Part shown: positions 5,870 through 47,416 of the stretch, one piece after another
How the letters are laid out: each line of letters begins with the position of its first letter
Numbering within the stretch: position 1 is the stretch's first letter
Source of the DNA: Gammaproteobacteria bacterium
GTDB lineage: Bacteria > Pseudomonadota > Gammaproteobacteria > Steroidobacterales > Woeseiaceae
Assembly (NCBI GenBank): GCA_009937605.1
Contig: JAACFG010000001.1
Coordinates: forward strand, 9,527 to 73,526
Length of the DNA: 64,000 nucleotides
Direction of reading: 5' to 3'
Notes under the pieces: generated by a model
The model's input: the letters and a program-made list of their open reading frames with translations, nothing else
What the model was told of the DNA's origin: nothing
Databases searched by the model: none
Translations under genes and position numbers: made by a program

Positions 5870-5876
5870 TCAGGCG

Positions 5877-22071: not shown

Positions 22072-24159
22072 TTGCACCCCGAGGGCACGCGGGCCGTGAC
22101 ACCGTTAACGTCCCTGAAAGGCGTCGGTCCGGCGCTCGCGACCAGGCTCGAGAAGCTCGGCCTCAGCAGGGCTGAGGACTTGTTGTTCCTGTTGCCGCTG
22201 CGCTACGAAGATCGAACGCAGCTTGTAAAGATTGGCTCACTCGTTGCGGGCACGCGTTGCCTCGTGACCGGTGAGGTCCTGCTGTCGGAAGTTGCCTTTC
22301 GTGGTCGCCGTAACCTGTTGGTCCGCATCGGTGACGGCAGTGGTCAGCTCACCCTGCGCTTCTTTCATTTTTCGCGACAACAACAGGCGCAGTTCGAGGC
22401 CGGCAAGCACGTCACTTGTTTCGGCGAGGTGCGGCGCAGTTCGTCCGGCTTCGAGATGATCCACCCCGAGTACCGGATACTGCGAGAAGAGCAGGGCGCG
22501 GCGATGAGTGATTCGCTGACACCGATCTATCCGACCACCGAAGGTGTTCAGCAGGGGCGGTTACGTAACCTGACGGACCAGGCGCTGCGCGCCATGGACG
22601 AGGCTCCGCCGGAAGAGCTGCTGCCAGCATCCGTCACCGGGAAACTGGGTATGCCATCGCTGGCCGACGCTATTCGCTACCTGCATCGGCCCCCACCCGA
22701 TGCCGACGTCCAGGTGATGCTCGACGGCAAACATCCCTGCCAACATCGATTGGCGTTTGAAGAGCTGTTGGCGCACTACCTTAGTTTGCGAAGCCTGCGT
22801 GCCCTTGCCGAGACAGAGGACGCAATTGCGCTGACCAAGAACCAGGACCGGGTCGATGACTTTATCGGCGATCTGCCATTCAAATTGACCACTGCGCAGA
22901 AGCGCGTGGTTGATGAGATCCTCACCGACCTGTCGCAACCGCACCCGATGATGCGCCTGATCCAGGGTGATGTCGGCTCGGGGAAAACAGTCGTTGCGGC
23001 AATCGCCTGTCTCAAGGCAATCGCCTGCGGCGTGCAGGCTGCCATTATGGCGCCGACGGAAATTCTCGCCGAGCAGCACTGGCGCAATTTCTCCGACTGG
23101 TTTCGACCACTCGGTATCGAGCCGGCGTGGTTGAGTGGCAGCCAGAAGGCGGCAGCCCGACGCGAATCATTGGCAGCCATCGCGGACGGTAGCGCCAAAC
23201 TGGTCGTTGGAACACATGCATTGTTCCAGGAAGGCGTGGACTTCAGTCAGCTTGCCCTCGTTGTCATCGATGAACAACATCGCTTTGGGGTGCACCAGCG
23301 CATGGCCCTGCGTGATAAAGGTATCGACAGCGCTGGCCACCCACACCAACTCGTGATGACGGCAACACCAATTCCGCGCACGTTGGCTATGGCTGCTTAC
23401 GCCGACCTGGACACGTCCGTAATCGATGAGCTCCCGCCGGGCCGTCAGCCTGTCTCGACAATTGCTGTGCCGGATTCGCGGCGCGGCGAGATTGTGGAAC
23501 GCGTACGAGCGGCCTGTGCCTCCGGCCAGCAGGCCTACTGGGTGTGTCCGCTGATCGAGGAGTCCGAGATCCTGGATTACCAGGCCGCGGAGGCAAGCTA
23601 CCAGATGCTAACCGAGGCGTTGCCCGAGCTACGGGTAGGCCTGGTGCACGGTCGCATGCGCCCGGCCGAAAAAGAGCGCGGTATGCAAGCGTTCAAGGAA
23701 GGGCTAATACAGGTGCTCGTGGCAACGACCGTCATCGAAGTAGGCGTGGACGTGCCGAATGCGAGCCTGATGATTATCGAGAACGCGGAGCGCATGGGGT
23801 TGTCGCAACTCCACCAGCTTCGCGGTCGCGTTGGTCGTGGCGCAGCGCAGAGCCATTGCGTGCTTCTGTACAAGCCGCCTCTGGGGCGTATTGCCAAGGA
23901 ACGGCTTGCTGTATTGCGCGACACCAATGACGGCTTCGTCGTTGCGCAGCGCGACCTCGAACTAAGGGGTCCCGGCGAACTGCTCGGGACGCGCCAGACG
24001 GGCTTGCCCGATTATCGCGTCGCGAACCTCGTGCGCGATGCCGATCTCATGCCGCAGGTACAGATAACAGCAGAGGCAATTCGCAAGTCGTCGACCGAGC
24101 GCGCGGCGGCGATCGTCCGACGCTGGCTTGGCGATGCCGGACGCTACGGCAAAGTGTAG
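22072..24159 (+). CDS. recG: ATP-dependent DNA helicase RecG
   Basis: Walker A GDVGSGKT and DEQH box VIDEQHRFG. N-terminal wedge domain. 695 aa. Confidence 0.9.
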   Translation: MHPEGTRAVTPLTSLKGVGPALATRLEKLGLSRAEDLLFLLPLRYEDRTQLVKIGSLVAGTRCLVTGEVLLSEVAFRGRRNLLVRIGDGSGQLTLRFFHFSRQQQAQFEAGKHVTCFGEVRRSSSGFEMIHPEYRILREEQGAAMSDSLTPIYPTTEGVQQGRLRNLTDQALRAMDEAPPEELLPASVTGKLGMPSLADAIRYLHRPPPDADVQVMLDGKHPCQHRLAFEELLAHYLSLRSLRALAETEDAIALTKNQDRVDDFIGDLPFKLTTAQKRVVDEILTDLSQPHPMMRLIQGDVGSGKTVVAAIACLKAIACGVQAAIMAPTEILAEQHWRNFSDWFRPLGIEPAWLSGSQKAAARRESLAAIADGSAKLVVGTHALFQEGVDFSQLALVVIDEQHRFGVHQRMALRDKGIDSAGHPHQLVMTATPIPRTLAMAAYADLDTSVIDELPPGRQPVSTIAVPDSRRGEIVERVRAACASGQQAYWVCPLIEESEILDYQAAEASYQMLTEALPELRVGLVHGRMRPAEKERGMQAFKEGLIQVLVATTVIEVGVDVPNASLMIIENAERMGLSQLHQLRGRVGRGAAQSHCVLLYKPPLGRIAKERLAVLRDTNDGFVVAQRDLELRGPGELLGTRQTGLPDYRVANLVRDADLMPQVQITAEAIRKSSTERAAAIVRRWLGDAGRYGKV

Positions 24160-24169
24160 AATCGCGCAG

Positions 24170-25072
24170 ATGAAGAGCTCAATCGTCGCCAACTTCGCGC
24201 CCGAGATCACAAGCCAGTTGCGCAACTACGGCAAGCTGATGCGTGTCGATAAACCCATCGGCACCTGGCTATTGCTGTGGCCTACGCTCTGGGCATTGTG
24301 GTTGGCGGGCGAGGGCTCGCCTGACCAGGGGCTGTTCGTGATCTTCGTTGTCGGCGTATTCGTCATGCGTTCAGCAGGATGTGTACTGAATGACTTCGTC
24401 GACCGGAAGATCGATCCGTACGTGGAACGCACACGCACGCGTCCGCTGGCGACTGGTGCCGTGGCGCCATTCGAAGCGCTGACATTGTTCGCTGCACTCG
24501 GGCTGATCGCGATCGGGCTCGCGACGATGCTCAACCCGCAGGCGCAGCTGCTCGCCGTCATCGGTGCCGTACTTACGATCGCCTACCCGTTCATCAAGCG
24601 CTATGTGTCCATCCCGCAGTTTGTGCTTGGTGCGGCCTTCGGCTGGGCGGCGCCCATGGCGTTCGCTGCGCAAACCGGCGGAACGCCGGAGCTTGCCTGG
24701 CTCGTGTTCGGCACCGCGGTGATCTGGGCGGTTATCTACGACACCTTCTACGCGATGGTGGATCGCGAGGACGACATCAAGATTGGCGTTAAATCCACGG
24801 CCGTTCTTTTCGGCGAAGTGGATCTGTTTGTCATCGCCGGTCTGCAGTTGCTCATGCTCCTGGCGCTGATACTCACGGGTTACCGCGCTGAACTCGGATT
24901 CTGGTACTACTTTTCTGTCGCAATTGCCGCCGCCATGATGGCATGGCACCTGTGGCTCGCGCGTGATCGCCAGCCAGCCGGTTGCTTCCAGGCTTTTCTG
25001 AGTAATCACCTGATTGGCATGGTGGTATTCATCGGCATCGCGCTTCACTACACATTCAATCCTGTGGTCTGA
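24170..25072 (+). CDS. ubiA: 4-hydroxybenzoate polyprenyltransferase
   Basis: Asp-rich motifs NDFVDRKIDPYVERT and YDTFYAMVDREDD. Multi-TM. Start taken at MKSSIV, because the longer ORF overlaps the recG stop. Confidence 0.85.
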   Translation: MKSSIVANFAPEITSQLRNYGKLMRVDKPIGTWLLLWPTLWALWLAGEGSPDQGLFVIFVVGVFVMRSAGCVLNDFVDRKIDPYVERTRTRPLATGAVAPFEALTLFAALGLIAIGLATMLNPQAQLLAVIGAVLTIAYPFIKRYVSIPQFVLGAAFGWAAPMAFAAQTGGTPELAWLVFGTAVIWAVIYDTFYAMVDREDDIKIGVKSTAVLFGEVDLFVIAGLQLLMLLALILTGYRAELGFWYYFSVAIAAAMMAWHLWLARDRQPAGCFQAFLSNHLIGMVVFIGIALHYTFNPVV

Positions 25073-29188: not shown

Positions 29189-29312
29189 GGACAATGCAAA
29201 ACTGCCGAATGAGTGGTTAAGAGCATGGTGTCGGGTAATTGTCGTGTGATTGCCGTACCTGACAGCGCTAGAATTCGGGAATACTCCTGGTTCACGAGCA
29301 CTGGGCACATTG

Positions 29313-29783
29313 ATGATACTCAAACAGATACGCATCAGCCGGCACCTGTCGCAGGAACAGCTGGCCCAAATATCCGGGCTGAATGTCAGAACGATCCAGC
29401 GAATAGAAAGCGGTCAGAATGCCAGCCTGGAGTCTCTGAAGTGTCTCGCCGCGGCGCTCGAAGTTGATGTTGCGACTTTGAATCAGGAGACATTTTCGAT
29501 GGACAAAGACTCAGGCAATTGGCACGAGCTCCCGCTTTGGCTCAAATGTTGGTTCTTCCTTAACTTCCTCAGCGTTCGTACGACCAGGGGCGTAGCTACA
29601 AGGATCCGAACGGTGTCGCATGTGAGTGGCTTCATCCTGTGCGCGCTGGGCTTCGTCAGTGAACCAGCGCTCGCCGGCGGGCTGATAATGCTTGCGAACG
29701 GCTACCTGTTCTCACTGCTTACCTGGCAGGGGGACAAGTACGGTATCTGGTACGATGGTCACGAAGCGAAAGCTCAGGGGTAG
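29313..29783 (+). CDS. Membrane-associated XRE-family helix-turn-helix protein
   Basis: MILKQIRISRHLSQEQLAQISGLNVRTIQRIESGQNASLESL is a classic HTH_XRE. It is followed by 2-3 hydrophobic segments (LWLKCWFFLNFL…, GFILCALGF…LIMLANGYLFSLL). Confidence 0.7.
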   Translation: MILKQIRISRHLSQEQLAQISGLNVRTIQRIESGQNASLESLKCLAAALEVDVATLNQETFSMDKDSGNWHELPLWLKCWFFLNFLSVRTTRGVATRIRTVSHVSGFILCALGFVSEPALAGGLIMLANGYLFSLLTWQGDKYGIWYDGHEAKAQG

Positions 29784-29784
29784 A

Positions 29785-30144
29785 ATGACCGCTACTGACC
29801 AGAAACGGACGTTAGCAATGACAACAAATCCACAGTGGACACGACACTTTGAGGGCATAGCCGACGAACTGGTTCGCCTGACCATCGCTTGCGATGTACG
29901 GCTAAAAGACCCCGGCGTCATAGAGCGAGTCATTCGCGGCGACATGTCAGTCTGCGGACGCAAGAATGAGATTGGCTTTCAGAAGCTTCAAAAGCTTTTG
30001 ATGGCAACATTCGACTCTCTCGGCAAAGCCATTGATCGTCTCGGGCCGGAAGAGACCCGGGAAATCCGCAGCGCGATTACCGAGTACATGGACAAACGCA
30101 GAGGCGGAGGCAGAGCGGCGGGCGGCGATTCCGATCAAGACTAG
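29785..30144 (+). CDS. Hypothetical protein
   Basis: ORF begins 2 nt after the HTH gene stop (MTATDQ…). No recognisable motifs, and the start is uncertain (alternative MTTNPQ at 29818). Confidence 0.4.
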   Translation: MTATDQKRTLAMTTNPQWTRHFEGIADELVRLTIACDVRLKDPGVIERVIRGDMSVCGRKNEIGFQKLQKLLMATFDSLGKAIDRLGPEETREIRSAITEYMDKRRGGGRAAGGDSDQD

Positions 30145-30150
30145 CCGTAA

Positions 30151-30166
30151 ATTGACCTGAGTCAAT
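30151..30166. promoter_or_regulatory. Perfect FNR/Dnr-type box upstream of the Dnr-like regulator (autoregulation?)
   Basis: ATTGAC-ctga-GTCAAT, with perfectly palindromic arms. The centre lies about 80 bp upstream of the MEKD start codon at 30239. Confidence 0.65.
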
Positions 30167-30238
30167 GCGCCAGACGGTGCCGGGACTAGACTGTGCCCGA
30201 TGATCCGAGTAAACCCCAAGGTGCTAGACTTCCCCAGC

Positions 30239-30922
30239 ATGGAGAAGGACACGGCACAGTATGAAGCGATTCGTCGTCACTACCTGTTTTCAGGTCTCGA
30301 CGAAGACGTTTTCGATGCGCTCGCGGCCGACATCACGGTTGAAGCCTACGACAAAGGCGAGGTGCTGTTTCATCGAGGCGACCCGGCGCAGGCTTTCTTC
30401 TTCATCGAGACTGGCCACGTCGAGCTGAGCCTGATATCTCCCGACGGCCAAAAGAAGACCGTCGAGGTCATCGACCACGACCGAACCTTCGCCGAGGCGT
30501 TGGTGTTCATACGCTCGGGCAAATTTCCGGTCAGTGCCGAAGCGCTGACAGCCACCGTCGTCTATCGAATCCCGAACGACCCGTACCGGACCCTGCTGCA
30601 CAACAACAACGATGCCTGCATGCGCCTGCTCAGTGACGTCTGCCGCCACTTGCACCAGCGCGTCCAGGAAATCGAGCAGCTGACCATCCAGAACGCACGA
30701 AGCCGGCTGTCCAGCTACCTGATCGACCATGCCACCGAGGTCGATGACGACGAGGCGACCATACGCCTTGACCTGCCCAAGCACGTCATCGCATCACGTC
30801 TGTCGATTACGCCCGAGACCCTGTCACGGCTTCTCCGCGTGATGTCCGAGGAGGGCATCCTGACGGTCGACGATCGCCTCATCTTTGTCCACAGCCTCGC
30901 GAGACTGCGCCCCTACGACTGA
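30239..30922 (+). CDS. dnr: Crp/Fnr-family regulator of the Dnr/NnrR (NO-responsive) type
   Basis: cNMP-like domain plus a C-terminal HTH with the E--SR recognition motif (ITPETLSRLL). It lacks the N-terminal Cys cluster of FNR. From memory, it aligns in length and layout with P. aeruginosa Dnr. Start chosen at MEKD; the tracked ORF starts at 30200. Confidence 0.75.
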   Translation: MEKDTAQYEAIRRHYLFSGLDEDVFDALAADITVEAYDKGEVLFHRGDPAQAFFFIETGHVELSLISPDGQKKTVEVIDHDRTFAEALVFIRSGKFPVSAEALTATVVYRIPNDPYRTLLHNNNDACMRLLSDVCRHLHQRVQEIEQLTIQNARSRLSSYLIDHATEVDDDEATIRLDLPKHVIASRLSITPETLSRLLRVMSEEGILTVDDRLIFVHSLARLRPYD

Positions 30923-30931
30923 AATCCCGCC

Positions 30932-30945
30932 TTGACCTAGGTCAT
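30932..30945. promoter_or_regulatory. FNR/Dnr-type box upstream of the heme-copper (NOR-like) operon
   Basis: TTGAC-ctag-GTCAT (one arm mismatch). It lies 10 bp after the dnr stop. The centre is about 55-80 bp upstream of the first small ORF starts (30994 or 31018). Confidence 0.6.
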
Positions 30946-31017
30946 GGAGACCGTGGGCCAGCGAGTTCAGGATGTTGTCGTATAGGCCGCATTGTGCATG
31001 GCTACAGCAGATCGCTT

Positions 31018-31203
31018 ATGAGCATCGTCTATTTCACGCTGGTTGCAGCCCTTCTGTACCTTTTTTCGGACTGGGTACTGCAGCGCGTCGAAGTTGCCGT
31101 GGGCCGGCGCTTCGAGCACCGGTCGCTCATCTTCTTCGCCATCCTGCTGACGCTCGCGCTCACCAGTTTTTCGCTGCTTGGCAACATTACAGGCAGCGCC
31201 TAG
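31018..31203 (+). CDS. Small two-TM membrane protein (unknown), first ORF of the operon
   Basis: MSIVYFTLVAALLYLFSDWVL…SLIFFAILLTLALTSFSLL has two clear hydrophobic helices. Start is uncertain (30994 or 31018). Confidence 0.45.
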   Translation: MSIVYFTLVAALLYLFSDWVLQRVEVAVGRRFEHRSLIFFAILLTLALTSFSLLGNITGSA

Positions 31204-31229
31204 AGAAGCAGGACAAGGGAGGCAAAGAA

Positions 31230-31406
31230 ATGTCTGACCATAACGAAGAAGTCGACGACAACACTCCGGACAATGAGCCGATTCCGCTGATGCAACGGGT
31301 GCTGGATAACCCGTTCCTCCTGCTGTTCTTAGGGATCGCGGTGCCGACGGTCTTTTATCTCATCTGGGGCATCATCGAAATCACCCAGATTCCGATCGCC
31401 GACTGA
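31230..31406 (+). CDS. Small single-TM protein with acidic N-terminus (possible accessory oxidase subunit)
   Basis: RBS-like gggagg upstream. MSDHNEEVDDNTPDNEPIPLMQRVLDNPFLLLFLGIAVPTVFYLIWGIIEI. Its position immediately before subunit II recalls small subunits such as ba3 IIa or CcoQ, which is an inference. Confidence 0.5.
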   Translation: MSDHNEEVDDNTPDNEPIPLMQRVLDNPFLLLFLGIAVPTVFYLIWGIIEITQIPIAD

Positions 31407-31425
31407 ACATTAAGGGGACAGAACC

Positions 31426-31959
31426 ATGGCTATAACACCACCGAGTGAACGGATCTGGTGGAAGGAACCGATCGCAAAGATCGAGCTCTCCTGGATCATC
31501 ATTGCCTTCACATGGGGCCTCATCATGTTCTTCATGATGATCTACTGGCACGGGGCTGGTGAACAGAACCTCTCCAATGAGGCGTACAAGATCAAACCCG
31601 AACGTTTTGCCGAGCACACCCAGGAAATGATTGACGCCTACACAGTGCGCAATGAGAGCGGTTTTCCGGTCGTGCATCCGCCGGCTGGCGACGATATCTA
31701 CCTGACGGGCCGCCTGTATAACTGGTGGCCGATACTCGAGCTGGAGAAAGACCAGACCTACCGCCTGCACCTGTCGTCGACCGATGTGCAACACGGCTTT
31801 TCGTTACAGCCTGTGAACATCAACGTCCAGGTGCACCCGGGCTATGACCTGGTCTTCACGATCAAGCCGGACAGGGCGGGCGAGTACGGCATCGTCTGTA
31901 ACGAATTCTGCGGGATCGGCCACCACCTGATGGTCGGCAAGATCTACGTCGTCGAGTAG
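31426..31959 (+). CDS. Heme-copper oxidase-family subunit II with one TM segment, a cupredoxin domain and an intact CuA site (NorY-like)
   Basis: H123 (VQHGFS) plus C158-N-E-F-C162-GIG-H166-HL-M169 is the complete CuA ligand set. 177 aa with one N-terminal TM segment. The small size is typical of B-family-type subunit II. Confidence 0.85.
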   Translation: MAITPPSERIWWKEPIAKIELSWIIIAFTWGLIMFFMMIYWHGAGEQNLSNEAYKIKPERFAEHTQEMIDAYTVRNESGFPVVHPPAGDDIYLTGRLYNWWPILELEKDQTYRLHLSSTDVQHGFSLQPVNINVQVHPGYDLVFTIKPDRAGEYGIVCNEFCGIGHHLMVGKIYVVE

Positions 31960-31971
31960 GGGAGTACGAAC

Positions 31972-33666
31972 ATGTCAAATAACACAGAATTTCGCACTTG
32001 CCCGACAACCGGCCTCAAGGTTGACCTGGCGGCTGAAAAGCTGATCAAGGTCAACGCAGTGGCCGCCGTCGTGTTCCTCGCAATCGGTGGGCTCTTCGGC
32101 CTGCTCGTCGCGCTGACGCGCTGGCCCGAGGTGCACTTGCTGCCAGCCGATTTCTTCTACCTGGCCCTGACCGCTCACGGTCTCGACGTCCTGCTGGTCT
32201 GGATCATCTTCTTCGAGATGGCCGTACTCTATTTCGCGTCGGCCGTTCTGCTGGGCAGTCGCCTGGCCGCCCCCAAGTTTGCGTGGGCGGGCTTTGTGCT
32301 AATGCTCGTCGGCGCAGTGATTACGAATATCGTCGTCCTGCAGGGCAAATCGAGCGTGATGTTTACGTCCTATGTACCATTGAAAGCCGAACCGGGCTTT
32401 TATCTCGGCATCATCCTGTTCGCCGTCGGTGCTTTGATCGGCTGCTTCGTGTTCTTCGCCACGCTGGTTGTGGCGCGCCAGGAACGAACCTACCAGGGGT
32501 CGATACCTCTGGTGACGTTTGGCGCCATGACGGCCGCTATCATTGCCGTCTTTACTATCGCATCCGGCGCGATCATCCTGATCCCGACGCTGCTCTGGTC
32601 CCTGGGCTACGTGGCCAACATCGACCCGATTCTCTATAAGACCATCTGGTGGGCCATGGGACACTCGTCGCAGCAAATCAACGTCGCTGCGCACGTGTCC
32701 ATCTGGTACGCGATTGCTGCCATGACCTTCGGCGCCAAACCACTGTCCGAGAAAGTCAGCCGCATGGCGTTTCTGATGTACATCCTGTTCCTGCAGATCG
32801 CCAGTGCTCACCACATGCTGGTGGAACCCGGGTTCAGCTCGGAATGGAAGATCTTCAACACGAGTTACGCCATGTACCTGGCCGTCCTCGGCAGCATGGT
32901 CCATGGCATGACCGTTCCCGGTTCGATCGAAGCGGCCCAGCGCTCGCGCGGCCTGAACAAGGGTATGTTCGAGTGGCTGCGCAAAGCGCCGTGGGGCAAC
33001 CCGGCGTTTGCCGGCATGTTCATGTCGCTCGTGTTCTTCGGGTTTATCGGCGGTATCTCCGGCGTGGTCATGGGAACCGAGCAGATCAACCTGATCATGC
33101 ACAACACGCTCTACGTTCCAGGTCACTTCCATGGCACTGTTGTGGCAGGCACGACGCTCGCGTTCATGGCGATCACCTATTACCTGGTGCCGCTGATCTT
33201 CCGCCGTGAGCTCATGTTCATGAAGCTGGCGAAGCTGCAGCCGTATGTGTTCGGTATCGGTGTTGCCGGCATCTCGGTATTCATGATGGGCGCCGGCACA
33301 CTTGGCGTTTCCCGCCGTCACTGGGACATGCAGTTCGCCGATGCGGTCCTGCCATTCGACTACCCCTCTGCCGCGTTCCTGATGATGGGTCTCAACGGTA
33401 TGTCAGCGGTACTCGCGGCGGTCGGCGGCATCATGTTTGTCGTTGTAGTGGTCGGTTCCGTGTTCTTCGGCCGCAAACTGGAGAAGGACGAGAAGCCGAG
33501 CTATCCGGAAGTGCCACCGCAATCCGCGGCGGTTGCCCAGCACGGCAGCGCTGAGTCCCTGAAGATTCCGGGCACGACGATGCTCGTCGCGATCTTCTTC
33601 ATCGCCTTTGTGCTGTACTACTTCGTTAACTGGAAATACCTGTCGGAGATCTGGCCTCTGAGCTAG
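31972..33666 (+). CDS. Heme-copper oxidase-family subunit I, B-family-like, lacking the cross-linked Tyr (NorS/sNOR-like candidate nitric oxide reductase)
   Basis: All six canonical His are present: H69 (LTAHG), H231 (WWAMGH), H280/H281 (ASAHHM) and H385/H387 (PGHFHG). The H+4 position is Gln235 (HSSQQ), where ba3 has HPIVY. Confidence 0.8.
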   Translation: MSNNTEFRTCPTTGLKVDLAAEKLIKVNAVAAVVFLAIGGLFGLLVALTRWPEVHLLPADFFYLALTAHGLDVLLVWIIFFEMAVLYFASAVLLGSRLAAPKFAWAGFVLMLVGAVITNIVVLQGKSSVMFTSYVPLKAEPGFYLGIILFAVGALIGCFVFFATLVVARQERTYQGSIPLVTFGAMTAAIIAVFTIASGAIILIPTLLWSLGYVANIDPILYKTIWWAMGHSSQQINVAAHVSIWYAIAAMTFGAKPLSEKVSRMAFLMYILFLQIASAHHMLVEPGFSSEWKIFNTSYAMYLAVLGSMVHGMTVPGSIEAAQRSRGLNKGMFEWLRKAPWGNPAFAGMFMSLVFFGFIGGISGVVMGTEQINLIMHNTLYVPGHFHGTVVAGTTLAFMAITYYLVPLIFRRELMFMKLAKLQPYVFGIGVAGISVFMMGAGTLGVSRRHWDMQFADAVLPFDYPSAAFLMMGLNGMSAVLAAVGGIMFVVVVVGSVFFGRKLEKDEKPSYPEVPPQSAAVAQHGSAESLKIPGTTMLVAIFFIAFVLYYFVNWKYLSEIWPLS

Positions 33667-33673
33667 GCAAATA

Positions 33674-34468
33674 ATGGATTATTTCCGTTTGCTTGTAGTC
33701 GTTTGTATCGTGGCCGGCGTTTCTGCCGGCCACGCTGCGACTGGGGCGCAGTCATACGACCGCAAAGACGCGCTCGAGATCAGCCAGGGCGCCATCGGGC
33801 GTGAACTCGACAACTACTCGCTGCGTGACGTCGATGGACAACCGTTTGACCTGGCACGGTTTCGTGGCAAGCCGCTGGTCATCAGTATGATTTACACAAG
33901 CTGTTACCACATCTGCCCGACGATTACCCGCAACCTCGGCGATACTATCGACGTCGCCCAGGAAGCGCTGGGTGAAGATGCGTTCTCCGTAATCACGGTG
34001 GGCTTCGACTGGAAAGTAGACACCCCGGAGCGCATGCGCAGTTTTGCCGCGGGCCTCGGTATGGATGACGTCCCGAACTGGCACTTTCTCGCGACCGAAG
34101 CACTTGTCGTCGACAAGCTAAGCGAAAACCTTGGCTTTTTGTTCTACCCCAGTGCGAAGGGCTTCGATCACCTGGCACAGGCAACCGTCATCGATGCTGA
34201 AGGCGAGATCTATCGCCAGGTGTATGGCGTCGACGTCGAGACCACAGCGATTGTCGAGCCACTCAAGGAACTTGTGTTCAACACACCACGAAGTGCCGGG
34301 TTCATCGAGCACTGGATGAGCACCTTCAGACTGTTCTGCACGGTTTACGATCCGAACAGCGACCGTTATCGCTTCGACTACTCCATTTTCATGGCGATAA
34401 TCGTCGGCGTCCTGTGTCTCGGCATGGTCGCCATATTCATCATCAGGGAATGGCGGCACGCACGCTAG
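33674..34468 (+). CDS. senC: SCO1/SenC-family copper chaperone with an additional C-terminal TM anchor
   Basis: Signal or anchor at the N-terminus. Thioredoxin-fold CxxxC (CYHICP) and a downstream His (GFDHLAQATVID). C-terminal hydrophobic FMAIIVGVLCLGMVAIFII. Confidence 0.8.
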   Translation: MDYFRLLVVVCIVAGVSAGHAATGAQSYDRKDALEISQGAIGRELDNYSLRDVDGQPFDLARFRGKPLVISMIYTSCYHICPTITRNLGDTIDVAQEALGEDAFSVITVGFDWKVDTPERMRSFAAGLGMDDVPNWHFLATEALVVDKLSENLGFLFYPSAKGFDHLAQATVIDAEGEIYRQVYGVDVETTAIVEPLKELVFNTPRSAGFIEHWMSTFRLFCTVYDPNSDRYRFDYSIFMAIIVGVLCLGMVAIFIIREWRHAR

Positions 34469-34475
34469 GAACGAT

Positions 34476-36011
34476 ATGGCATTGATCAAACGTGCCCTGG
34501 CACGCGCGTTCACCAGGTGCGAGGCGGTATTCGAGTACGCGTTCGGCCAGCGAAACAACCCTTTCGTCTGGCTGGGAGCGCTCGGCTGGTATTTCTACTG
34601 GATCGTCGCAGCTACCGGCGTCTACCTGTATATCTTCTTTGACACTGGCGTCACTGATGCCTATGCGTCGGTCGAGTACATCACCAACGAACAGTGGTAC
34701 GCGGCCGGCTTGATGCGCAGCCTGCACCGCTACGCATCCGATGCCCTGGTCGTCGTCATTGTCCTGCACATCTTCCGTGAGTTCGCCCATGATCGCCTGC
34801 GTGGCAGGCGCTTTTTTGCCTGGCTGACCGGCGTGCCGCTGCTCGCCTTTATCTACATCTGCGGCATCAGTGGCTACTGGCTGGTGTGGGACCAACTGGC
34901 ACAGTACATAGCAATAGCAACCACCGAGTGGCTCGACACCTTACCCATGTTTGGTGAGCCCATCGCCAATAACTTCCTCAACAACACCACGCTCGGCGGC
35001 CGCTTCTTCACGCTGATGGTATTCATTCATATCTTTGGGCCGCTGTTCATGCTGCTGTTGATGTGGGTACACATCCAGCGGCACTCCGGCGCGCGGGTGA
35101 ACCCGCCCAAAGAACTGGCAATCGGCACAATGGTCATGCTCGTGGTGCTGTCATTTGTTTACCCGGCCGTCAGCCAGGGTCCGGCCGACCTCGACTTGGT
35201 GCCGACGGACGTCGGACTCGACTGGTTCTACCTCGCTGCGTATCCATTGCTCGACATTGTGCCTGGCGGGCAGCTCTGGCTGTATATCGTCGGTGGCCTC
35301 GTGTTGCTGGCACTGCTTCCCTGGGCGCCACCCGCTAAGCCCGTCAAACCTGCCCTGGTCAATCTCGACAATTGCAACGGCTGTACGCGTTGCTTCGACG
35401 ACTGCCCGTTCGGCGCCATTTCCATGGTGCCGCGTAGTGACGGACGCGCCTATGATGTTGAGCCGGTCGTCAACGCCGCAAACTGCACCAGTTGCGGCAT
35501 ATGTGCCGGATCCTGCCCGACGTCCACACCGTTCCGGCGCGCGGTCCCGATCCAGCCCGGTATCGAACTGCCCGATCGAACGATCGGCGCCTTACGTGAA
35601 GAACTCATTGCGGAACCGGACACAGAAGCCGCGGGACCGCGGGTACTCGTCTTCGGCTGCGACACGAGCAATGTCGATGAATTGCACGGGGACGGCACGC
35701 GCGTGATCAAGCTGCCGTGCGTCGGCATGCTGCCGCCATCTTTCGTCGACTTTGCCCTGTCGCGCCGCTTCGCGGACGGCGTCATGATTGCCGGCTGTGC
35801 CGAGTGCGACTGCTACCATCGCCTGGGCAACGAATGGACCATGGCTCGCATGGCGGGCGAGCGAGATCCATATCTGCGCAAGCGCGTAGATACGCGCCGT
35901 CTGTCATTGAACTGGTTGCCGCGCAATGCGGGACGCCGGCGCAGAAAGGCCCTTGAGGCGTTCCACTCGGCGTTGGCCGGCATTGACCTGAAGGAGACAG
36001 ACGATGAATAG
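34476..36011 (+). CDS. Fusion protein: cytochrome b (N-terminal, di-heme-like) + 2x[4Fe-4S] ferredoxin + MvhD/FlpD-like domain
   Basis: Cytochrome b-like His pairs (RSLHRYASDALVVVIVLHIFREF; FFTLMVFIHIFGPLFMLLLMWVHIQRH). CNGCTRCFDDCP and CTSCGICAGSCP cluster motifs. C-terminal FGCD…KLPCVGML…ADGVMIAGCAECDCYH matches the hydrogenase delta-subunit-like domain. Confidence 0.8.
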   Translation: MALIKRALARAFTRCEAVFEYAFGQRNNPFVWLGALGWYFYWIVAATGVYLYIFFDTGVTDAYASVEYITNEQWYAAGLMRSLHRYASDALVVVIVLHIFREFAHDRLRGRRFFAWLTGVPLLAFIYICGISGYWLVWDQLAQYIAIATTEWLDTLPMFGEPIANNFLNNTTLGGRFFTLMVFIHIFGPLFMLLLMWVHIQRHSGARVNPPKELAIGTMVMLVVLSFVYPAVSQGPADLDLVPTDVGLDWFYLAAYPLLDIVPGGQLWLYIVGGLVLLALLPWAPPAKPVKPALVNLDNCNGCTRCFDDCPFGAISMVPRSDGRAYDVEPVVNAANCTSCGICAGSCPTSTPFRRAVPIQPGIELPDRTIGALREELIAEPDTEAAGPRVLVFGCDTSNVDELHGDGTRVIKLPCVGMLPPSFVDFALSRRFADGVMIAGCAECDCYHRLGNEWTMARMAGERDPYLRKRVDTRRLSLNWLPRNAGRRRRKALEAFHSALAGIDLKETDDE

Positions 36012-36495
36012 ACTCGTACAGGTCGTCCTCTACGCCGCATTTGCGGTGGGCATCGGGTACTTCTCCCTGTCGCCGCCGTACCAGTATGCGGACGAGGAGA
36101 TGGCGTCGATCAAGCTGTCACTCAGCCACGCCGCCAAGCGCGTCGAAGACTGCGTCAAGCTGACACCCGACGAAATCAACAGGCGCGCCCTCGCAGGCGA
36201 GCCGATATCCGAGTGTGGCCGCGAACGCCTGCCGCTGACGATCGAGCTGGAGATAGACGGAGTCATCGTGTTCCGCGATGAGCCGCTGCCGTCAGGCCTG
36301 TGGAGCGACGGCCCGGCATCGGTCTACGAGCGCTTCGAGCTTGCACCCGGCCCCCACATTATTACCGCCAGGCTTCGCGATACCGCGCGCGAGCATGGCT
36401 GGGATTACTCACACAGTGACGAGGTAGTGCTCTTGCCCGGGCGCTATTTCTCGATTACGTTCCGGGCCGAGACGGGAGGTTTCAGGTACCGATGA
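36004..36495 (+). CDS. Hypothetical membrane-anchored protein
   Basis: 8-nt overlap with the upstream gene and an ATGA overlap with the hemerythrin gene. N-terminal TM segment (VVLYAAFAVGIGYF). No recognisable motif. Confidence 0.6.
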   Translation: MNRLVQVVLYAAFAVGIGYFSLSPPYQYADEEMASIKLSLSHAAKRVEDCVKLTPDEINRRALAGEPISECGRERLPLTIELEIDGVIVFRDEPLPSGLWSDGPASVYERFELAPGPHIITARLRDTAREHGWDYSHSDEVVLLPGRYFSITFRAETGGFRYR

Positions 36496-36884
36496 CTTTA
36501 ATAGCCTGGAGAAACGAGTTCAGCGTCGGTGTCGATGCGGTCGATCATGAGCATCGCGAGATGATTGCGCTAATCAATGAGCTCGACGAAGCGATGCAGG
36601 ACGACGCCAGCCAGGCGACCGTCGTCGAAGCACTTGGTGAAATTTATGCCCGGATCTCAGCCCACTTCGCGCTCGAGGAAAAGACGATGCGCGATGCGCG
36701 CTACAGCCAGCTTGCCGAGCACAAGCAGGACCACGAGCAGCTACTCGATGAGCTGCTCGATGTGATTGACAGTGTCGACGATGAAGGCCGCTACGATCGA
36801 GCGGACTTGTCGAGGAGCCTCGACCGCTGGTTTTCGGACCACTTTCGAACACACGATGCCAGGCTGCATCACGAGTTAGGTTGA
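36492..36884 (+). CDS. Bacteriohemerythrin-like di-iron protein
   Basis: Hemerythrin ligand pattern: VDHEHREM, HFALEE, HKQDHEQL, FSDHFRTHDARL. 130 aa. Confidence 0.85.
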   Translation: MTLIAWRNEFSVGVDAVDHEHREMIALINELDEAMQDDASQATVVEALGEIYARISAHFALEEKTMRDARYSQLAEHKQDHEQLLDELLDVIDSVDDEGRYDRADLSRSLDRWFSDHFRTHDARLHHELG

Positions 36885-36934: not shown

Positions 36935-36962
36935 GCGACGGTGCTGCAAGCAGCACCGTCGC
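36935..36962. terminator. Bidirectional hairpin between the convergent hemerythrin gene and nirS
   Basis: gcgacggtgctgc-aa-gcagcaccgtcgc: 13-nt perfectly complementary arms. Confidence 0.6.
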
Positions 36963-37008: not shown

Positions 37009-41368
<4,360 letters not shown>

Positions 41369-41430
41369 GTACTTTCCCATGACTCGGGCAGTTCGAATAC
41401 TGAATTGTCCCCCTTTGGTGCGCGGCAACC

Positions 41431-41444
41431 ATGATCTAGGTCAA
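41431..41444. promoter_or_regulatory. FNR/Dnr-type box upstream of the TonB-receptor-nirS transcription unit
   Basis: On the minus strand this reads TTGAC-ctag-ATCAT, with the same CTAG core as the box at 30932. The centre is about 70 bp upstream of the 41368 start codon. Confidence 0.6.
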
Positions 41445-43026: not shown

Positions 43027-43257
43027 GCTCTTGTTAAATAAGATTTAATCTCAACAAGAATCCGGGGCTCAGCATTGCATGGCTGTCGCGATTTCAGTAA
43101 ACTGCGCGAGCTTTTTTGACCGGCACGGCGGTCAAACCGGCCGAAAAGCGAATCTCCGGCATGACCGGGCCAGCAGGACGCTGGCGATCCCAGTATTCGC
43201 GACTTCCGGAAATTGAAATGATTGCGATCGTGGCGACGGTTGCAGGGTGGACAAGTA

Positions 43258-45648
43258 ATGATACGAAAATCGTTCCTGAGCCTGGTGGGCCTGGTTCTGG
43301 CAAGCACGGCGAAAGCCGACTGGGCGCTCAACATGCCCAGGGGCGTAACCGATCTCAGCGTCGAGACGTTCGAACTGCACATGATGGTCTTCTGGTGGTG
43401 CGTTGCCATCGGGGTCGTCGTTTTCGGCGTCATGATCATCTCGCTGTTCAAGCACAGAAAGTCGAAAGGCGCGGAACCTGCGTCGTTCTCTCACAGTACG
43501 GTTGCGGAGGTCATCTGGACGGCGATTCCCGTTGTCATACTGCTGATCATGGCGGTGCCGGCAGCGGAGACGATGATCCGGCTCGAAGATTCCCGCGACC
43601 CTGATATATCCATCGTGGTCACGGGCTACCAATGGAAGTGGCACTACAAATACCAGGACGAAGGCATTGAGTTCTACTCGAGCCTCGCGCGCCCGAGCCT
43701 GGCCGCCCGTCCGAAGCAATCGGGCGTCGACGTGAACAGCGTTGAGAACTACCTGCTTGAAGTTGACCGCCCCCTGGTCGTGCCGAGGGGCGCAAAAGTT
43801 CGCGTGCTGCTGACATCAAATGACGTCATCCACTCGTGGTGGGTTCCTGATTTGGCAATCAAGAAAGACGCTATTCCAGGCATCGTTAACGAAACCTGGT
43901 TCAACGCCAATGAAACCGGCACTTTTCGCGGCCAGTGCGCCGAGTTGTGCGGCAAGGATCACGGCTACATGCCGGTCGTTGTCGAAGTGGTTGAGCCCGA
44001 GGCCTACCAGGCCTGGGTCAACACCCACAGTGATGGCGAAGAAAGACTCGCCAGCACACACGACGCACACGCCGCGGACCACGACGAACATGGCCCCGAG
44101 AAGGGCATCAAGCGCTGGTTGTTCTCAACCAACCACAAAGACATTGGCACGATGTACCTCATCTTCAGCCTCGTCATGTTCTTTGTTGGCGGCGCAATGG
44201 CGATGGTCATTCGCTCGGAACTAGCTGTCCCGGGCCTGCAATTCGTTCATCCGGAGTTCTTCAACTCGATGACCACGATGCACGCTTTGATCATGGTCTT
44301 CGGCGCAGTAATGCCGGCCTTCGTTGGCCTCGCCAACTGGATGATCCCGCTGATGATCGGCGCACCCGACATGGCGCTGCCACGCATGAACAACTGGTCG
44401 TTCTGGATCCTGCCGGTCGCGTTCGGCATCCTGCTTTCGACGCTCCTTATGCCGGGCGGCGCTCCTGCCAGTGGCTGGACGATGTACCCGCCGCTCGTCC
44501 TTCAGACCGGCGATGCGTTCCCGTTCCTGATTTTCTCCGTCCACCTGATGGGCATCTCGTCGATCATGGGCTCCATCAACGTGATCGTGACGATCATCAA
44601 CATGCGCGCGCCTGACATGACGCTGCTCAAGATGCCGATGTTTGTGTGGACCTGGCTGATTACCGCGTATCTGTTGATCGCCGTGATGCCGGTACTGGCT
44701 GGCGCGGTTACCATGCTGCTGACCGACCAGTTCTTCGGCACGAGCTTCTTCCTCGCGGCCGGCGGTGGCGATCCCGTCATGTTCCAGCACATCTTCTGGT
44801 TCTTCGGGCACCCCGAGGTCTACATCATGATTCTGCCGGCCTTCGGTGTCGTATCAGAAATCATCCCGACGTTCTCGCGCAAGAAACTGTTCGGTCACGA
44901 CTCGATGGTATACGCGGCATCGTGTATCGCATTCCTGTCGTTCATCGTCTGGGCGCACCACATGTTCACGGTGGGCATGCCGTTAACGGGCCAGCTGTTC
45001 TTCATGTTCGCGACAATGCTCATCGCTGTTCCGACCGGTGTGAAGATTTTCAACTGGGTTGCGACGATGTGGCGCGGCTCGATGACGTTCGAGACGCCGA
45101 TGCTGTTCTCGCTGGCATTCGTCTTCCTGTTCACAATCGGTGGTTTCTCCGGCCTGATGCTCGCGATCCAGCCAGCGGATGTGCAGTACCACGACAGCTA
45201 TTTCGTTGTGGCTCACTTCCACTACGTACTGGTCCCGGGTTCGGTCTTCGCGATCATGGCGGGCGCCTACTACTGGCTCCCGAAGTGGACCGGCCATATG
45301 TATAACGAGGGTCTCGGCAAGCTGCACTTCTGGACCTCGACGATCTTCGTGAACCTCACGTTCTTCCCAATGCACTTCCTTGGGCTGGCCGGCATGCCGC
45401 GTCGTATCCCGGACTACTCAACCCAGTTCACGGACTTCAACACGATCGCCAGTGTCGGCGCCATTGGCTTCGGCCTGTCGCAATTGCTGTTCGTGCTTGT
45501 GATTTTGACCGCAAAGAAGGGCGCCAAGGCGACCGACCGGGTTTGGGAAGGTTCGCACGGTCTCGAATGGACGGTACCGTCGCCGGCGCCGTGGCACACG
45601 TTTACGACGCCGCCGAAAGCGCGCATCGCTAACGAATCTTTCGAGTAG
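43258..45648 (+). CDS. aa3-type cytochrome c oxidase subunit II and subunit I encoded as one uninterrupted ORF
   Basis: N-terminal part: signal peptide, 2 TM segments and CuA (HSWWVPDL…CAELCGKDHGYM). From about residue 270: STHDAHAADHDEHGPEKGIKRWLFSTNHKDIGTMYL… is a full CoxA. I verified codon by codon that there is no stop between them (43981-44160). Confidence 0.8.
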   Translation: MIRKSFLSLVGLVLASTAKADWALNMPRGVTDLSVETFELHMMVFWWCVAIGVVVFGVMIISLFKHRKSKGAEPASFSHSTVAEVIWTAIPVVILLIMAVPAAETMIRLEDSRDPDISIVVTGYQWKWHYKYQDEGIEFYSSLARPSLAARPKQSGVDVNSVENYLLEVDRPLVVPRGAKVRVLLTSNDVIHSWWVPDLAIKKDAIPGIVNETWFNANETGTFRGQCAELCGKDHGYMPVVVEVVEPEAYQAWVNTHSDGEERLASTHDAHAADHDEHGPEKGIKRWLFSTNHKDIGTMYLIFSLVMFFVGGAMAMVIRSELAVPGLQFVHPEFFNSMTTMHALIMVFGAVMPAFVGLANWMIPLMIGAPDMALPRMNNWSFWILPVAFGILLSTLLMPGGAPASGWTMYPPLVLQTGDAFPFLIFSVHLMGISSIMGSINVIVTIINMRAPDMTLLKMPMFVWTWLITAYLLIAVMPVLAGAVTMLLTDQFFGTSFFLAAGGGDPVMFQHIFWFFGHPEVYIMILPAFGVVSEIIPTFSRKKLFGHDSMVYAASCIAFLSFIVWAHHMFTVGMPLTGQLFFMFATMLIAVPTGVKIFNWVATMWRGSMTFETPMLFSLAFVFLFTIGGFSGLMLAIQPADVQYHDSYFVVAHFHYVLVPGSVFAIMAGAYYWLPKWTGHMYNEGLGKLHFWTSTIFVNLTFFPMHFLGLAGMPRRIPDYSTQFTDFNTIASVGAIGFGLSQLLFVLVILTAKKGAKATDRVWEGSHGLEWTVPSPAPWHTFTTPPKARIANESFE

Positions 45649-45651
45649 AAC

Positions 45652-45762
45652 GTGGACGAGAAGGAGCGCAAAAAGAACATTCGCCGCACGACGCTGATCG
45701 TCGTGGCGGTTGCTCTCGCGTTCTACGTCGGCTTCATCATGATGGGCGTGCTGCGTTCCTGA
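45652..45762 (+). CDS. Possible small membrane protein between coxA and cox11
   Basis: GTG-started 36-codon [39 protein letters not shown]: a basic N-terminus plus one TM segment. It fills the coxA-cox11 gap exactly. It is below the ORF-track length cutoff. Confidence 0.4.
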
Positions 45763-45763
45763 T

Positions 45764-46291
45764 ATGCATCGTAATCTCGTAACATCGTTGTTGGTGGTCG
45801 TTGTCGGAGCGTTTGCTTTCGGCTACGCGCTCGTGCCGCTTTACGACGTGTTCTGCGAGATCACGGGCTTCGGCGGTCGCACCAATGCGGAAGCCGTGGC
45901 CAGGGTTGAGGCGCCGGACCTGTCGCGCGAGATTCGGATTGAGTTCGTCACGACGATCAACTCGTACGCACCATTCGAGTTCGGAGCCGACGCGGACAGC
46001 ATGATGGTCAACCCGGGCAAGATGTACTTCGCGACGTTTACCGCGAAGAATCTGACCGACAAGGACAAGGTTGCCCAGGCCGTGCCGAGCGTTGCACCCG
46101 GGGCGGCCGCGGAACACTTCGTGAAGATCGAGTGTTTTTGCTTCGACCAGCAGGAATTCCTCGCGAACGAAGAGCGGGCCATGCCACTGCAGTTCATTGT
46201 CGATCCGGACCTGCCGGATTACGTAGACACCATTACCCTGCAATACACATTCTTCGACACCGCTCCTGTGGCGTCGAATAAAAAATACTGA
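45764..46291 (+). CDS. ctaG: Cytochrome c oxidase assembly protein Cox11/CtaG
   Basis: N-terminal TM segment and the copper-binding CFCF motif ([11 protein letters not shown]). 175 aa. Confidence 0.9.
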
Positions 46292-46310
46292 CAAGTACCT
46301 GAGAATCATC

Positions 46311-47180: not shown

Positions 47181-47184
47181 TTCG

Positions 47185-47206
47185 AACGGGCGCTTCGGCG
47201 CCCGTT
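47185..47206. terminator. Bidirectional hairpin between coxC and the convergent small TM gene
   Basis: aacgggcgc-ttcg-gcgcccgtt: a 9-bp GC-rich stem with a UUCG loop, followed by a T-rich tract on the + strand. Confidence 0.65.
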
Positions 47207-47215
47207 TCGTTCTTG

Positions 47216-47404
47216 TCAGGGCTGTATCCAGCCGCCCAGGTAGGATACGACCAGGAACAGGATGAGAATGGCGGAGAGTGCTACGCGAATGCGTAACGCA
47301 CGCTGGATTTTTTCAGAATCGTGGTTCTTCCCGGACAGGTAGAACAACCCCGAACCAAGGCTGATAATGATCGCAGCCAGTAGAATAAAAACGATGGACT
47401 TCAT
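47216..47404 (-). CDS. Twin-TM small protein (DUF2909-like) commonly found in cox clusters
   Basis: MKSIVFILLAAIIISLGSGLFYL…ALSAILILFLVVSYLGGW, 62 aa. Internal start of the tracked 151-aa ORF. Confidence 0.6.
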   Translation of the reverse strand: MKSIVFILLAAIIISLGSGLFYLSGKNHDSEKIQRALRIRVALSAILILFLVVSYLGGWIQP

Positions 47405-47416
47405 AGTCGATTCACA

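Follow-up and report, generated by a model that had tools for sequence, protein, structure and literature searches.

A heme-copper oxidase-like enzyme encoded beside a nitrite reductase gene raises the question of which gas it reduces, oxygen (O2) or nitric oxide (NO), to which family it belongs, and what the other genes of its operon contribute. The question is posed here by an operon of eight genes in a 64,000-nucleotide stretch of DNA (the window; positions 9,527 to 73,526 of contig JAACFG010000001.1, assembly GCA_009937605.1) from a gammaproteobacterium of the family Woeseiaceae. The operon is read here, with good though not complete confidence, as a respiratory or detoxifying NO reductase operon of the eNOR family, and we infer the NO reductase activity from family membership and genomic context. 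An original prediction, made from the letters of the window and a list of its open reading frames (ORFs), had likewise proposed an NO reductase kind of heme-copper enzyme, in agreement with the B-family derivation of subunit I, the CuA-bearing subunit II and the absence of the cross-link Tyr. The eight co-directional ORFs are all present on the + strand between 30994 and 36884 in the ORF list of the window, and ORFs, Pfam and NCBIfam matches and hydropathy bore out the domain content that had been predicted for them. The genes are as follows.

30994–31203, + strand: small membrane protein of 69 amino acids (aa) with two transmembrane (TM) helices by hydropathy; GTG start, or 61 aa if the in-frame ATG at 31018 is used
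31230–31406, + strand: small single-TM protein of 58 aa by hydropathy, with a GGGAGG ribosome-binding site
31426–31959, + strand: putative eNOR subunit II, 177 aa, one TM helix and a cupredoxin domain (Pfam COX2, 9.8e-06; NCBIfam CoxB/NosZ C-terminal matches)
31972–33666, + strand: putative eNOR subunit I (catalytic), 564 aa (Pfam COX1, 1.6e-67)
33674–34468, + strand: Sco/SenC copper chaperone, 264 aa, with CYHICP (Pfam SCO1-SenC, 4.2e-14) and N- and C-terminal TM segments by hydropathy
34476–36011, + strand: cytochrome b/2x[4Fe-4S]/MvhD fusion, 511 aa (Pfam Cytochrome_B, two Fer4 and FlpD/MvhD)
36004–36495, + strand: 163-aa protein with an N-terminal TM anchor and a beta-sandwich; no Pfam or NCBIfam match
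36492–36884, + strand: cytoplasmic bacteriohemerythrin, 130 aa (NCBIfam NF033749, 98.7 bits against a cut-off of 84; Pfam Hemerythrin)

The gaps from gene to gene are 26, 19, 12, 7 and 7 nt, and the final two junctions overlap by 8 and 4 nt. The 8-nt gaps and overlapping stop and start codons that had been described from subunit II to the hemerythrin are a close match to these values: the overlaps stand, and the gaps are 12, 7 and 7 nt. Tight or overlapping spacing, an order conserved in about 80 genomes and on a plasmid, and a strong hairpin 3' of the hemerythrin gene all speak for a single operon.

Residues and family of subunit I

The best solved relative of subunit I in a HMMER search was the ba3 oxidase of Thermus thermophilus (E about 1e-47). 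Helix VI aligned without gaps (WWAMGHSSQQIN vs WWTGHPIVYFW of ba3), and Gln235 fell on the cross-linked Tyr237 of the oxidase, so that the lack of a catalytic Tyr in the original prediction was correct. H231-S-S-Q-Q235 (GHSSQQIN) corresponds to ba3 H233-P-I-V-Y237 (GHPIVYFW), the position in question being H+4 of the helix VI CuB/FeB His. Six His residues that are invariant among the relatives (H69, H231, H280, H281, H385, and H387) aligned with ba3 H72, H233, H282, H283, H384, and H386; by role, two His bind the low-spin heme, one the high-spin heme and three CuB/FeB. Subunit I also retains K-channel-like residues, with S308, T314, and Y246 at the positions of ba3 S309, T315, and Y248. Thus, the enzyme shares with ba3 oxidase the six-His ligation, the CuA subunit II and a one-helix subunit of the IIa kind, and differs from it in having Gln for Tyr237, Val for Y244 and His (H311) for T312. 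Because these three residues are replaced, reduction of NO rather than O2 is predicted. The sole further conserved Tyr of helix VII is Y270, which lies 10 residues ahead of the His pair, in the channel region.

Families of heme-copper enzymes have been distinguished by the residue at the cross-link position, which is Y in O2 reductases, E in cNOR and qNOR, N in sNOR, and Q in eNOR (PMC8756737 Table A4, after Hemp and Gennis, 2008). A 2024 PNAS study (PMC11214002) has reported that the B-family Ser309 is kept in eNOR and bNOR and is missing in sNOR, and that sNOR has a Glu at another channel position. In the alignments made here, the Tyr column held Q in Thermus, Thermomicrobium, Natrarchaeobius and every proteobacterial relative compared. 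The relatives of subunit I in public proteins, compared as representatives at 50% identity, fell into three groups. The first is a Gln type that includes the window protein, P0121 (55% identity) and a Natrarchaeobius protein (39%). The second, a sister group from Hodarchaeales and Thermoproteota, has Tyr in the motif GHT.QY.N, and the third consists of the canonical B-family oxidases with GHPxVYFW. All B-family representatives and plasmid-borne oxidases showed Y at the cross-link column. Gln-type genes were also found on plasmids of T. thermophilus TTHNAR1 and Thermomicrobium roseum (44–46% identical), and the one from Thermus has the His/Lys variant of the heme ligands that has been described for some eNORs in the eNOR paper. 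A neighbor-joining (NJ) tree recovered the Gln-type sequences as one clade, separate from the GHPxVYFW oxidases, in 96.5% of 200 bootstraps, and the proteobacterial clade with the window protein in 100%.

Subunit I is filed here as a putative eNOR, and not as the sNOR-type enzyme of the original prediction, because Gln235 rather than Asn is at the Tyr position, the Ser equivalent to S309 is kept, and the Gln-type clade is well recovered; the basis of the assignment is the residue that the literature gives as diagnostic, together with proxy sequences. The placement in the Gln-type clade, together with the channel position of Y270, also bears on a refutation proposed with the original prediction, namely a B-family O2 reductase that uses an alternative Tyr, and does not favor it. 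In addition, the description of the enzyme family as essentially uncharacterised fits sNOR and does not fit eNOR. The eNOR of Rhodothermus marinus has been purified; it contains heme As, reduces NO at 0.68 per s (25 °C) and does not reduce O2. Heme As at both heme positions counts as a cofactor trait of the family. The 'cytochrome a1-like' hemoprotein of Magnetospirillum magnetotacticum is another member. The window enzyme resembles this family in the Gln, the six His, the K-channel-like residues including the S309-type Ser, the CuA subunit II and the small upstream subunit. Genes for heme o synthase and Sco in related loci and the frequent presence of adjoining nir genes are further points of likeness. 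The proteobacterial clade differs from the rest of the family by the addition of the fusion, the 163-aa anchored beta-sandwich protein and the bacteriohemerythrin, and the window differs by the absence of a ctaB (heme o synthase) gene within the operon.

Several other sequences were met in these comparisons. Plasmid matches from Geobacillus, Deinococcus, Burkholderia, Methylobacterium, and Brevibacillus were considered as sNORs and rejected, as all have the Tyr motif of ordinary B-family oxidases. The sister clade that keeps Tyr (P0129, P0133, P0127, and P0143; Hodarchaeales, Thermoproteota and others) shares with eNOR the Gln at H+3 and the Asn at H+6, and may stand between B-family oxidases and eNOR in evolution. 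An Asgard locus of this clade (L091) contains the core genes only. Three further heme-copper relatives (P0182, P0193, and P0201, one of them from Dehalococcoidia) have Tyr instead of His at one position of the HH pair and at the ligand of the high-spin heme, and H-x-x-H-Y in helix VI, a ligand set that matches no family considered here.

The closest subunit I proteins are 100% identical (a gammaproteobacterial metagenome-assembled genome, MAG) and 87–92% identical (Woeseiaceae MAGs). Public annotations name the close relatives cytochrome c oxidase subunit I or 'cbb3-type', and the exact protein 'cytochrome C oxidase subunit I'. Publications already cover the enzyme family, the activity it has and how abundant it is in sediments, and public databases contain the exact proteins under misleading names. 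Woeseiaceae have been reported to be among the most abundant marine-sediment bacteria and have been described as truncated denitrifiers and net producers of nitrous oxide (N2O); one paper has given their NO reductase as NorBC. In estuarine sediments, eNOR has been reported to exceed all other nor types in abundance and in transcription. A search of one literature library found no paper that combined eNOR with Woeseiaceae. Three points are new here: an eNOR operon is explicitly located beside nirS in Woeseiaceae, an accessory module is near-universal in a large proteobacterial eNOR clade, and an FNR-type box is conserved. The misleading annotation would hide a capacity to produce N2O, and the presence of eNOR in Woeseiaceae would help to explain the dominance of eNOR in estuarine sediments.

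The operon and its accessory genes in related genomes

The conservation of the operon was determined by a scan with one genome per GTDB species, from which the best 80 of at least about 600 matches were kept as loci. All 80 are from Gamma- and Alphaproteobacteria and have a subunit I that is at least 68% identical to that of the window. Searches with the window proteins (tblastn) against these loci and two further contigs, 82 in all, gave homologues of subunit II in 82, the 58-aa protein in 80, Sco in 80, the cytochrome b/FeS/MvhD fusion in 78, the 163-aa protein in 73, the hemerythrin in 68 and the 69-aa protein in 45. Of the 80 genome loci alone, 78, 76, 71, and 66 encode Sco, the fusion, the 163-aa protein and the hemerythrin, respectively, 3' of subunit I and in this order. 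The order from the 58-aa gene to the hemerythrin was constant, with isolated exceptions (the hemerythrin is upstream in L072 and two 69-aa matches are displaced), and most absences were contig ends. The frequency of neighborhood conservation had been proposed as a check, and most of the 82 loci have the accessory order. Contrary to the view that the accessory genes are extras of this locus, they keep their order in about 80 proteobacterial species-level genomes and on a plasmid of Defluviimonas sp. SAOS-178_SWC, a cultured carrier of the same operon. The Defluviimonas genes have generic annotations ('cytochrome b N-terminal domain-containing protein', 'hypothetical' and 'hemerythrin family protein'). 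On a 3.7-Mb contig (L001), a copy with 93% identity shares with the window the regulator, all eight genes and the convergent nirS/TonB-receptor pair, and other genes lie farther upstream.

The two small ORFs at the start of the operon are real genes, because homologues of the 69- and 58-aa proteins are present in 45 and 80 of the 82 loci and both were called as genes independently on the 3.7-Mb contig of this relative. The 58-aa protein has the position of subunit IIa/CbaC of B-family enzymes, and analogous small ORFs precede subunit II in Thermus, Thermomicrobium, and Defluviimonas. The small TM subunits had also been counted as extras; a small TM subunit 5' of subunit II is normal in clusters of the B-family type. 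Subunit II contains the full CuA motif H...CNEFCGIGHHLM (pattern H...C-x-E-x-C-x3-H-x2-M). Sco proteins are CuA chaperones, and because of this established knowledge the Sco protein of the operon is probably involved in CuA assembly.

Most relatives have an additional ctaB (heme o synthase) gene between subunit I and Sco, for example at 8754–9623 in L003, 8743–9654 in L044, and 10721–11602 in L083. This gene is absent in the window and is also missing in some other Woeseiaceae loci. The in-operon ctaB paralogue could encode the prenyltransferase responsible for the longer side chain of heme As. The ctaB of the aa3 oxidase cluster of the window (48727–49638) is 36% identical to the in-operon ctaB of the relatives; it is the sole ctaB of the 64-kb window, in which no ctaA was found. 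A UbiA gene at 24128–25072 was considered as a displaced eNOR ctaB and rejected, as the match covered 29 residues only.

More distant loci differ in content. A 55%-identical eNOR from a metagenome has a downstream Sco gene, a 715-aa cytochrome b/Fer4/FlpD fusion and UbiA, with nirS and nap genes, including napA, adjoining. The Thermus, Thermomicrobium and haloarchaeal loci have the core only, to which Thermomicrobium adds CtaA-CtaB, and the accessory module thus belongs to one bacterial branch of eNOR. Because these loci do without the accessory genes, the latter are dispensable for catalysis as such.

Two of these loci have features of their own. That of the 55%-identical eNOR (L088/L089) includes at 5844–7337 a second, very divergent COX1-like gene (497 aa; Pfam COX1, 3.8e-07), directly 5' of a small subunit and subunit II and beside nirS, a multiheme cytochrome and napA/napD. 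On plasmid 4 of T. thermophilus TTHNAR1 (L084), the eNOR-type core consists of a 41-aa ORF, subunit II and the subunit I with the His/Lys variant; it sits on this megaplasmid between nirS/nirK and an Rrf2 (NsrR-like) regulator and has been annotated as a cbb3-type oxidase.

The fusion protein was compared with the Protein Data Bank (PDB) by sequence profiles in place of an AlphaFold2 (AF2) fold. Residues 1–200 matched cytochrome b6 (6e-21), and mitochondrial and bacterial bc1 cytochrome b aligned to about residue 300, which corresponds to helices A–F. The C-terminal part matched the ferredoxin domains of FwdF and HdrA, and MvhD with 6e-10 (9sw2_D, 5odc_D). Four heme-ligand His residues are invariant and form two pairs with a spacing of 14 residues in each. 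The position of the PEWY motif of bc1 is taken by L248-D249-W250-F251, in a region matched by subunit IV and by cytochrome b 257–311, and D249 and W250 are invariant. Hydropathy gave six helices and a positively charged N-terminus, because of which the two CxxCxxCxxxCP clusters and the MvhD domain are predicted to be cytoplasmic. Overall, the fusion keeps helices A–F, both pairs of heme-ligand His and a PEWY-like Qo motif of bc1/b6f cytochrome b, and its C-terminal half resembles the ferredoxin and MvhD end of HdrA2. In contrast to bc1, the operon encodes neither a Rieske protein nor a cytochrome c1 or f, and cytoplasmic FeS domains replace the region of helices G–H after the Qi-side face. The hydrogenase or heterodisulfide reductase partners of MvhD/HdrA modules are absent here.

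The 163-aa protein has 708 homologues, every one of them 'hypothetical', and H42, C50, and C71 are among its invariant residues. Its AF2 model shows an N-terminal anchor helix followed by a beta-sandwich, with a predicted local distance difference test (pLDDT) score of 80. A Foldseek search of this model against the PDB gave no match below E 0.01 and only generic beta-sandwiches. The hemerythrin has all seven di-iron ligands (H, HxxxE, HxxxH, and HxxxxD) and no signal peptide.

A comparable gene set has been reported recently in a preprint on Ferrigenium straubiae (bioRxiv 10.64898/2026.01.22.701106). There, the common operon consists of eNOR II, eNOR I, heme o synthase, sco1 and a 'scaffold' protein. 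Two additional cytochrome b/[Fe-S] genes have been called unusual, a respiratory supercomplex has been proposed, expression of the operon under denitrifying conditions has been reported, and the eNOR has been detected in the proteome under denitrifying Fe(II) oxidation. The Ferrigenium operon resembles that of the window in bringing together eNOR II, eNOR I, sco1 and cytochrome b/[Fe-S] proteins. It differs in that one of its cytochrome b/[Fe-S] proteins has flavin adenine dinucleotide (FAD) and NADH domains, whereas the fusion of the window ends in MvhD and has no flavin domain. The preprint mentions no hemerythrin. Cytochrome b genes described there as unusual are near-universal in the clade sampled here.

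Regulator, boxes and the nirS unit

The operon lies between a regulator gene and a convergent nirS gene, as had been stated in the original prediction for the FNR/Dnr-type box, the Dnr-type regulator and nirS (boxes are given against the consensus TTGAY-N4-RTCAA). The features are as follows.

30152–30165, no strand assigned: FNR/Dnr-type box TTGACCTGAGTCAA, a perfect match to the consensus; intergenic, 35 nt ahead of the ATG at 30200
30200–30922, + strand: Crp/Fnr-family transcription factor, Dnr/NnrR-like (Pfam cNMP_binding, 1.1e-18; HTH_Crp_2, 1.8e-12)
30932–30945, no strand assigned: FNR/Dnr-type box TTGACCTAGGTCAT ahead of the operon, with one mismatch to the consensus
36935–36962, no strand assigned: perfect inverted repeat with a stem of 12–13 bp between the convergent units (sequence and fold energy)
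37009–39150, − strand: cd1 nitrite reductase NirS, 713 aa (Pfam Cytochrom_D1, 2.4e-147, and two cytochrome c domains)
39188–41428, − strand: TonB-dependent receptor (Pfam Plug and TonB_dep_Rec)
41431–41444, − strand: third FNR/Dnr-type box TTGACCTAGATCAT, ahead of the TonB-receptor/nirS unit (box scan)

The regulator has no N-terminal FNR Cys cluster and has an ETLSR (E-x-x-S-R) recognition helix. Regulators of the Dnr/NnrR branch lack this cluster, bind boxes resembling TTGAT-N4-ATCAA through an E-x-x-S-R helix and sense NO or heme. No NCBIfam equivalog reached its cut-off for this protein, and the designation 'Dnr-type' is plausible but unproven. The three near-identical boxes (TTGACCT-N2-RTCA) are in promoter positions ahead of the regulator gene, the operon and the TonB-receptor/nirS unit, and the box at 30152–30165 makes autoregulation of the regulator gene possible. 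Over the whole window the box count is not significant alone (11 found vs 5.8 expected). Upstream of the operon, 38 of 77 related loci had a box with at most one mismatch, in most cases a perfect palindrome, and the chance expectation of a perfect box is about 0.001 per 380-bp region by the author's own calculation. The boxes are considered significant because of their position and their conservation across genomes, and not because of the window-wide count, and FNR-type control of the operon appears to be widespread. Dnr-like matches near the operon were found in 17 of the 82 loci and cd1-type matches in 19, because of which the Dnr/nirS linkage is regarded as lineage-specific. As an extra of this locus the linkage therefore stands, being restricted to a subset of the loci, whereas the other features listed as extras are widely conserved.

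The usual c and d1 domains of NirS are preceded by an extra cytochrome c domain in the N-terminal part, and the protein has a lipoprotein-type signal (LALGAC). The convergent arrangement with nirS is also present in L001 and L005. The TonB receptor gene is 37 nt 5' of nirS, and the same pairing is seen in the 93%-identical L001; the two genes are probably one transcription unit. The inverted repeat between the stop codons of the hemerythrin gene and nirS folds with −35.7 kcal/mol (z −5.0; 0 of 200 shuffles as good) and is likely a bidirectional terminator, with a clear U-run absent. Directly 5' of the regulator gene, the region 29250–30144 encodes an XRE-type helix-turn-helix (HTH) protein of 177 aa whose C-terminal half is hydrophobic, and a 150-aa ORF that overlaps this gene and has no family match.

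Proposed function and rival explanations

The regulation of the operon and the roles of all its accessory proteins are put forward here as proposals. The 58-aa subunit, the CuA subunit II and subunit I would form the core enzyme, in which electrons would pass from CuA to the low-spin heme and from there to the binuclear site of heme and non-heme metal. At this site, with Gln235 in place of the Tyr needed for O2 reduction, two NO would be converted to N2O, and the K-channel-like row of polar residues could take protons from the cytoplasm. Sco would load CuA. The Crp/Fnr regulator probably switches on its own gene, the operon and the TonB-receptor/nirS unit under low O2 or NO, and the NO released by NirS would be removed at once by eNOR. 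The fusion is most simply seen as a dedicated electron-transfer partner, most likely a Rieske-less bc1-like quinol oxidiser or a transmembrane wire, which would connect the quinone pool, or a cytoplasmic carrier, to eNOR. For the 163-aa protein, a place in the periplasm with a membrane anchor is proposed, as a subunit or as an assembly factor; the hemerythrin would be a cytoplasmic O2/NO-binding di-iron protein that may act as sensor, buffer or O2 supply. The accessory module offers a handle on how eNOR gets its electrons and whether it conserves energy, and on how a heme a enzyme matures at very low O2.

Several observations weigh against this proposal. The eNOR of R. marinus works on TMPD (N,N,N',N'-tetramethyl-p-phenylenediamine)/ascorbate alone, and the eNOR loci of Thermus, Thermomicrobium and haloarchaea have neither the fusion nor the 163-aa protein nor the hemerythrin. 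The electron-donor role of the accessory genes is unproven, and the AF2 model of the 511-aa fusion is poor (pLDDT 52; shallow alignment of at least 69% identity). The tree is by NJ only, and proxy sequences stand in for the eNOR of R. marinus and M. magnetotacticum, the sNOR of Nitrosomonas and curated family HMMs (hidden Markov models). A high-affinity oxidase would be just as compatible with an FNR-type box and with induction at low O2.

This last point leads to a different reading of the core enzyme, as a high-affinity, B-family-like terminal O2 reductase that would work under microoxic conditions and reduce NO as a side activity. The closest solved structure is indeed an O2 reductase, the ba3 oxidase, FNR-type control also suits microaerobic oxidases, a sister clade has retained the Tyr, the operon encodes an O2-binding protein, the hemerythrin, and a high-affinity-oxidase argument of this kind has been made for the sNOR of N. 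europaea. An O2-reductase role of subunit I is nevertheless unlikely, because the Tyr is missing from the cross-link position and the R. marinus eNOR showed no O2 reductase activity with several donors. With Y270 placed in the channel region, nir genes adjoining eNOR repeatedly across phyla (nirS and nap beside the 55%-identical eNOR, nirS and nirK beside that of Thermus) and an aa3 oxidase cluster already 6 kb away, this explanation is held to be very improbable. The sNOR-type enzyme of the norSY-senC-orf1 family of ammonia oxidisers, to which the original prediction had pointed, is scarcely tenable. It shares with the window enzyme (as does the Bacillus cbaCBA-senC-cbaD cluster) the B-family derivation, the CuA subunit II, the lack of the cross-link Tyr, the small upstream subunit and the SenC/Sco gene downstream, and the order of subunit II, subunit I and Sco in the window is that of norS-norY-senC. 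It differs in the Asn at the diagnostic position, the lack of the S309-equivalent Ser and its separate clade in published trees, and the window protein groups with the Gln-type sequences at the bootstrap value given above. The gene 3' of Sco differs as well. B-family and sNOR-like clusters have there a protein of about 190 aa with six TM helices, and a Tyr-containing cluster of B-family type in Methylobacterium has Caa3_CtaG, to which the 511-aa fusion of the window is unrelated.

Within the preferred reading as an eNOR operon, the second half of the operon is open to two further explanations. The fusion, the 163-aa protein and the hemerythrin may form with eNOR a supercomplex that is independent of bc1. 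Oxidation of quinol would take place at a Qo-like site that works without a Rieske protein, with one electron going to CuA and on to NO and the other crossing the membrane through the b hemes to the cytoplasmic FeS centres. The cytoplasmic branch could then reduce an acceptor in the cytoplasm by a route resembling electron bifurcation, or it could feed the hemerythrin, which might, for example, store or hand over trace O2 for the synthesis of heme a or remove NO from the cytoplasm. This is a speculative and rather unlikely arrangement; if true, it would be a new wiring of a denitrification enzyme and could explain how eNOR matures and obtains its electrons in near-anoxic sediment. As a real but improbable alternative, Sco, the fusion, the 163-aa protein and the hemerythrin may be a maturation module for the insertion of Cu and Fe and for the O2-dependent synthesis of heme a/As at very low O2, in which the hemerythrin would supply O2 and the FeS domains electrons. 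Heme a synthase, as known from Cox15 and Yah1, is a heme-b membrane protein that requires a ferredoxin-type donor, which suits such a module. In its favor are also the Sco gene in the operon and the ctaB between subunit I and Sco in most related loci. In addition, eNOR uses heme As, and the O2 requirement of heme a synthesis has been stated as a puzzle for anoxic growth (bioRxiv 10.64898/2026.01.22.701106). The membrane domain of the fusion is, however, a bc1/b6-type cytochrome b with a Qo-like motif and not a CtaA/Cox15 fold, and eNOR loci that lack the fusion still have CtaA-CtaB. CtaA-like genes were found beside the fusion in six loci, which argues against a simple replacement; the idea that the fusion replaces heme a synthase is weakened by these genes and by the type of the membrane domain.

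The aa3 oxidase cluster of the window lies at 43222–49638. It is of the A-family (aa3) type, with subunits II and I fused in one 808-aa ORF, which is followed in order by ctaG, cox3, SURF1, a 191-aa ORF that has no family match, and ctaB.

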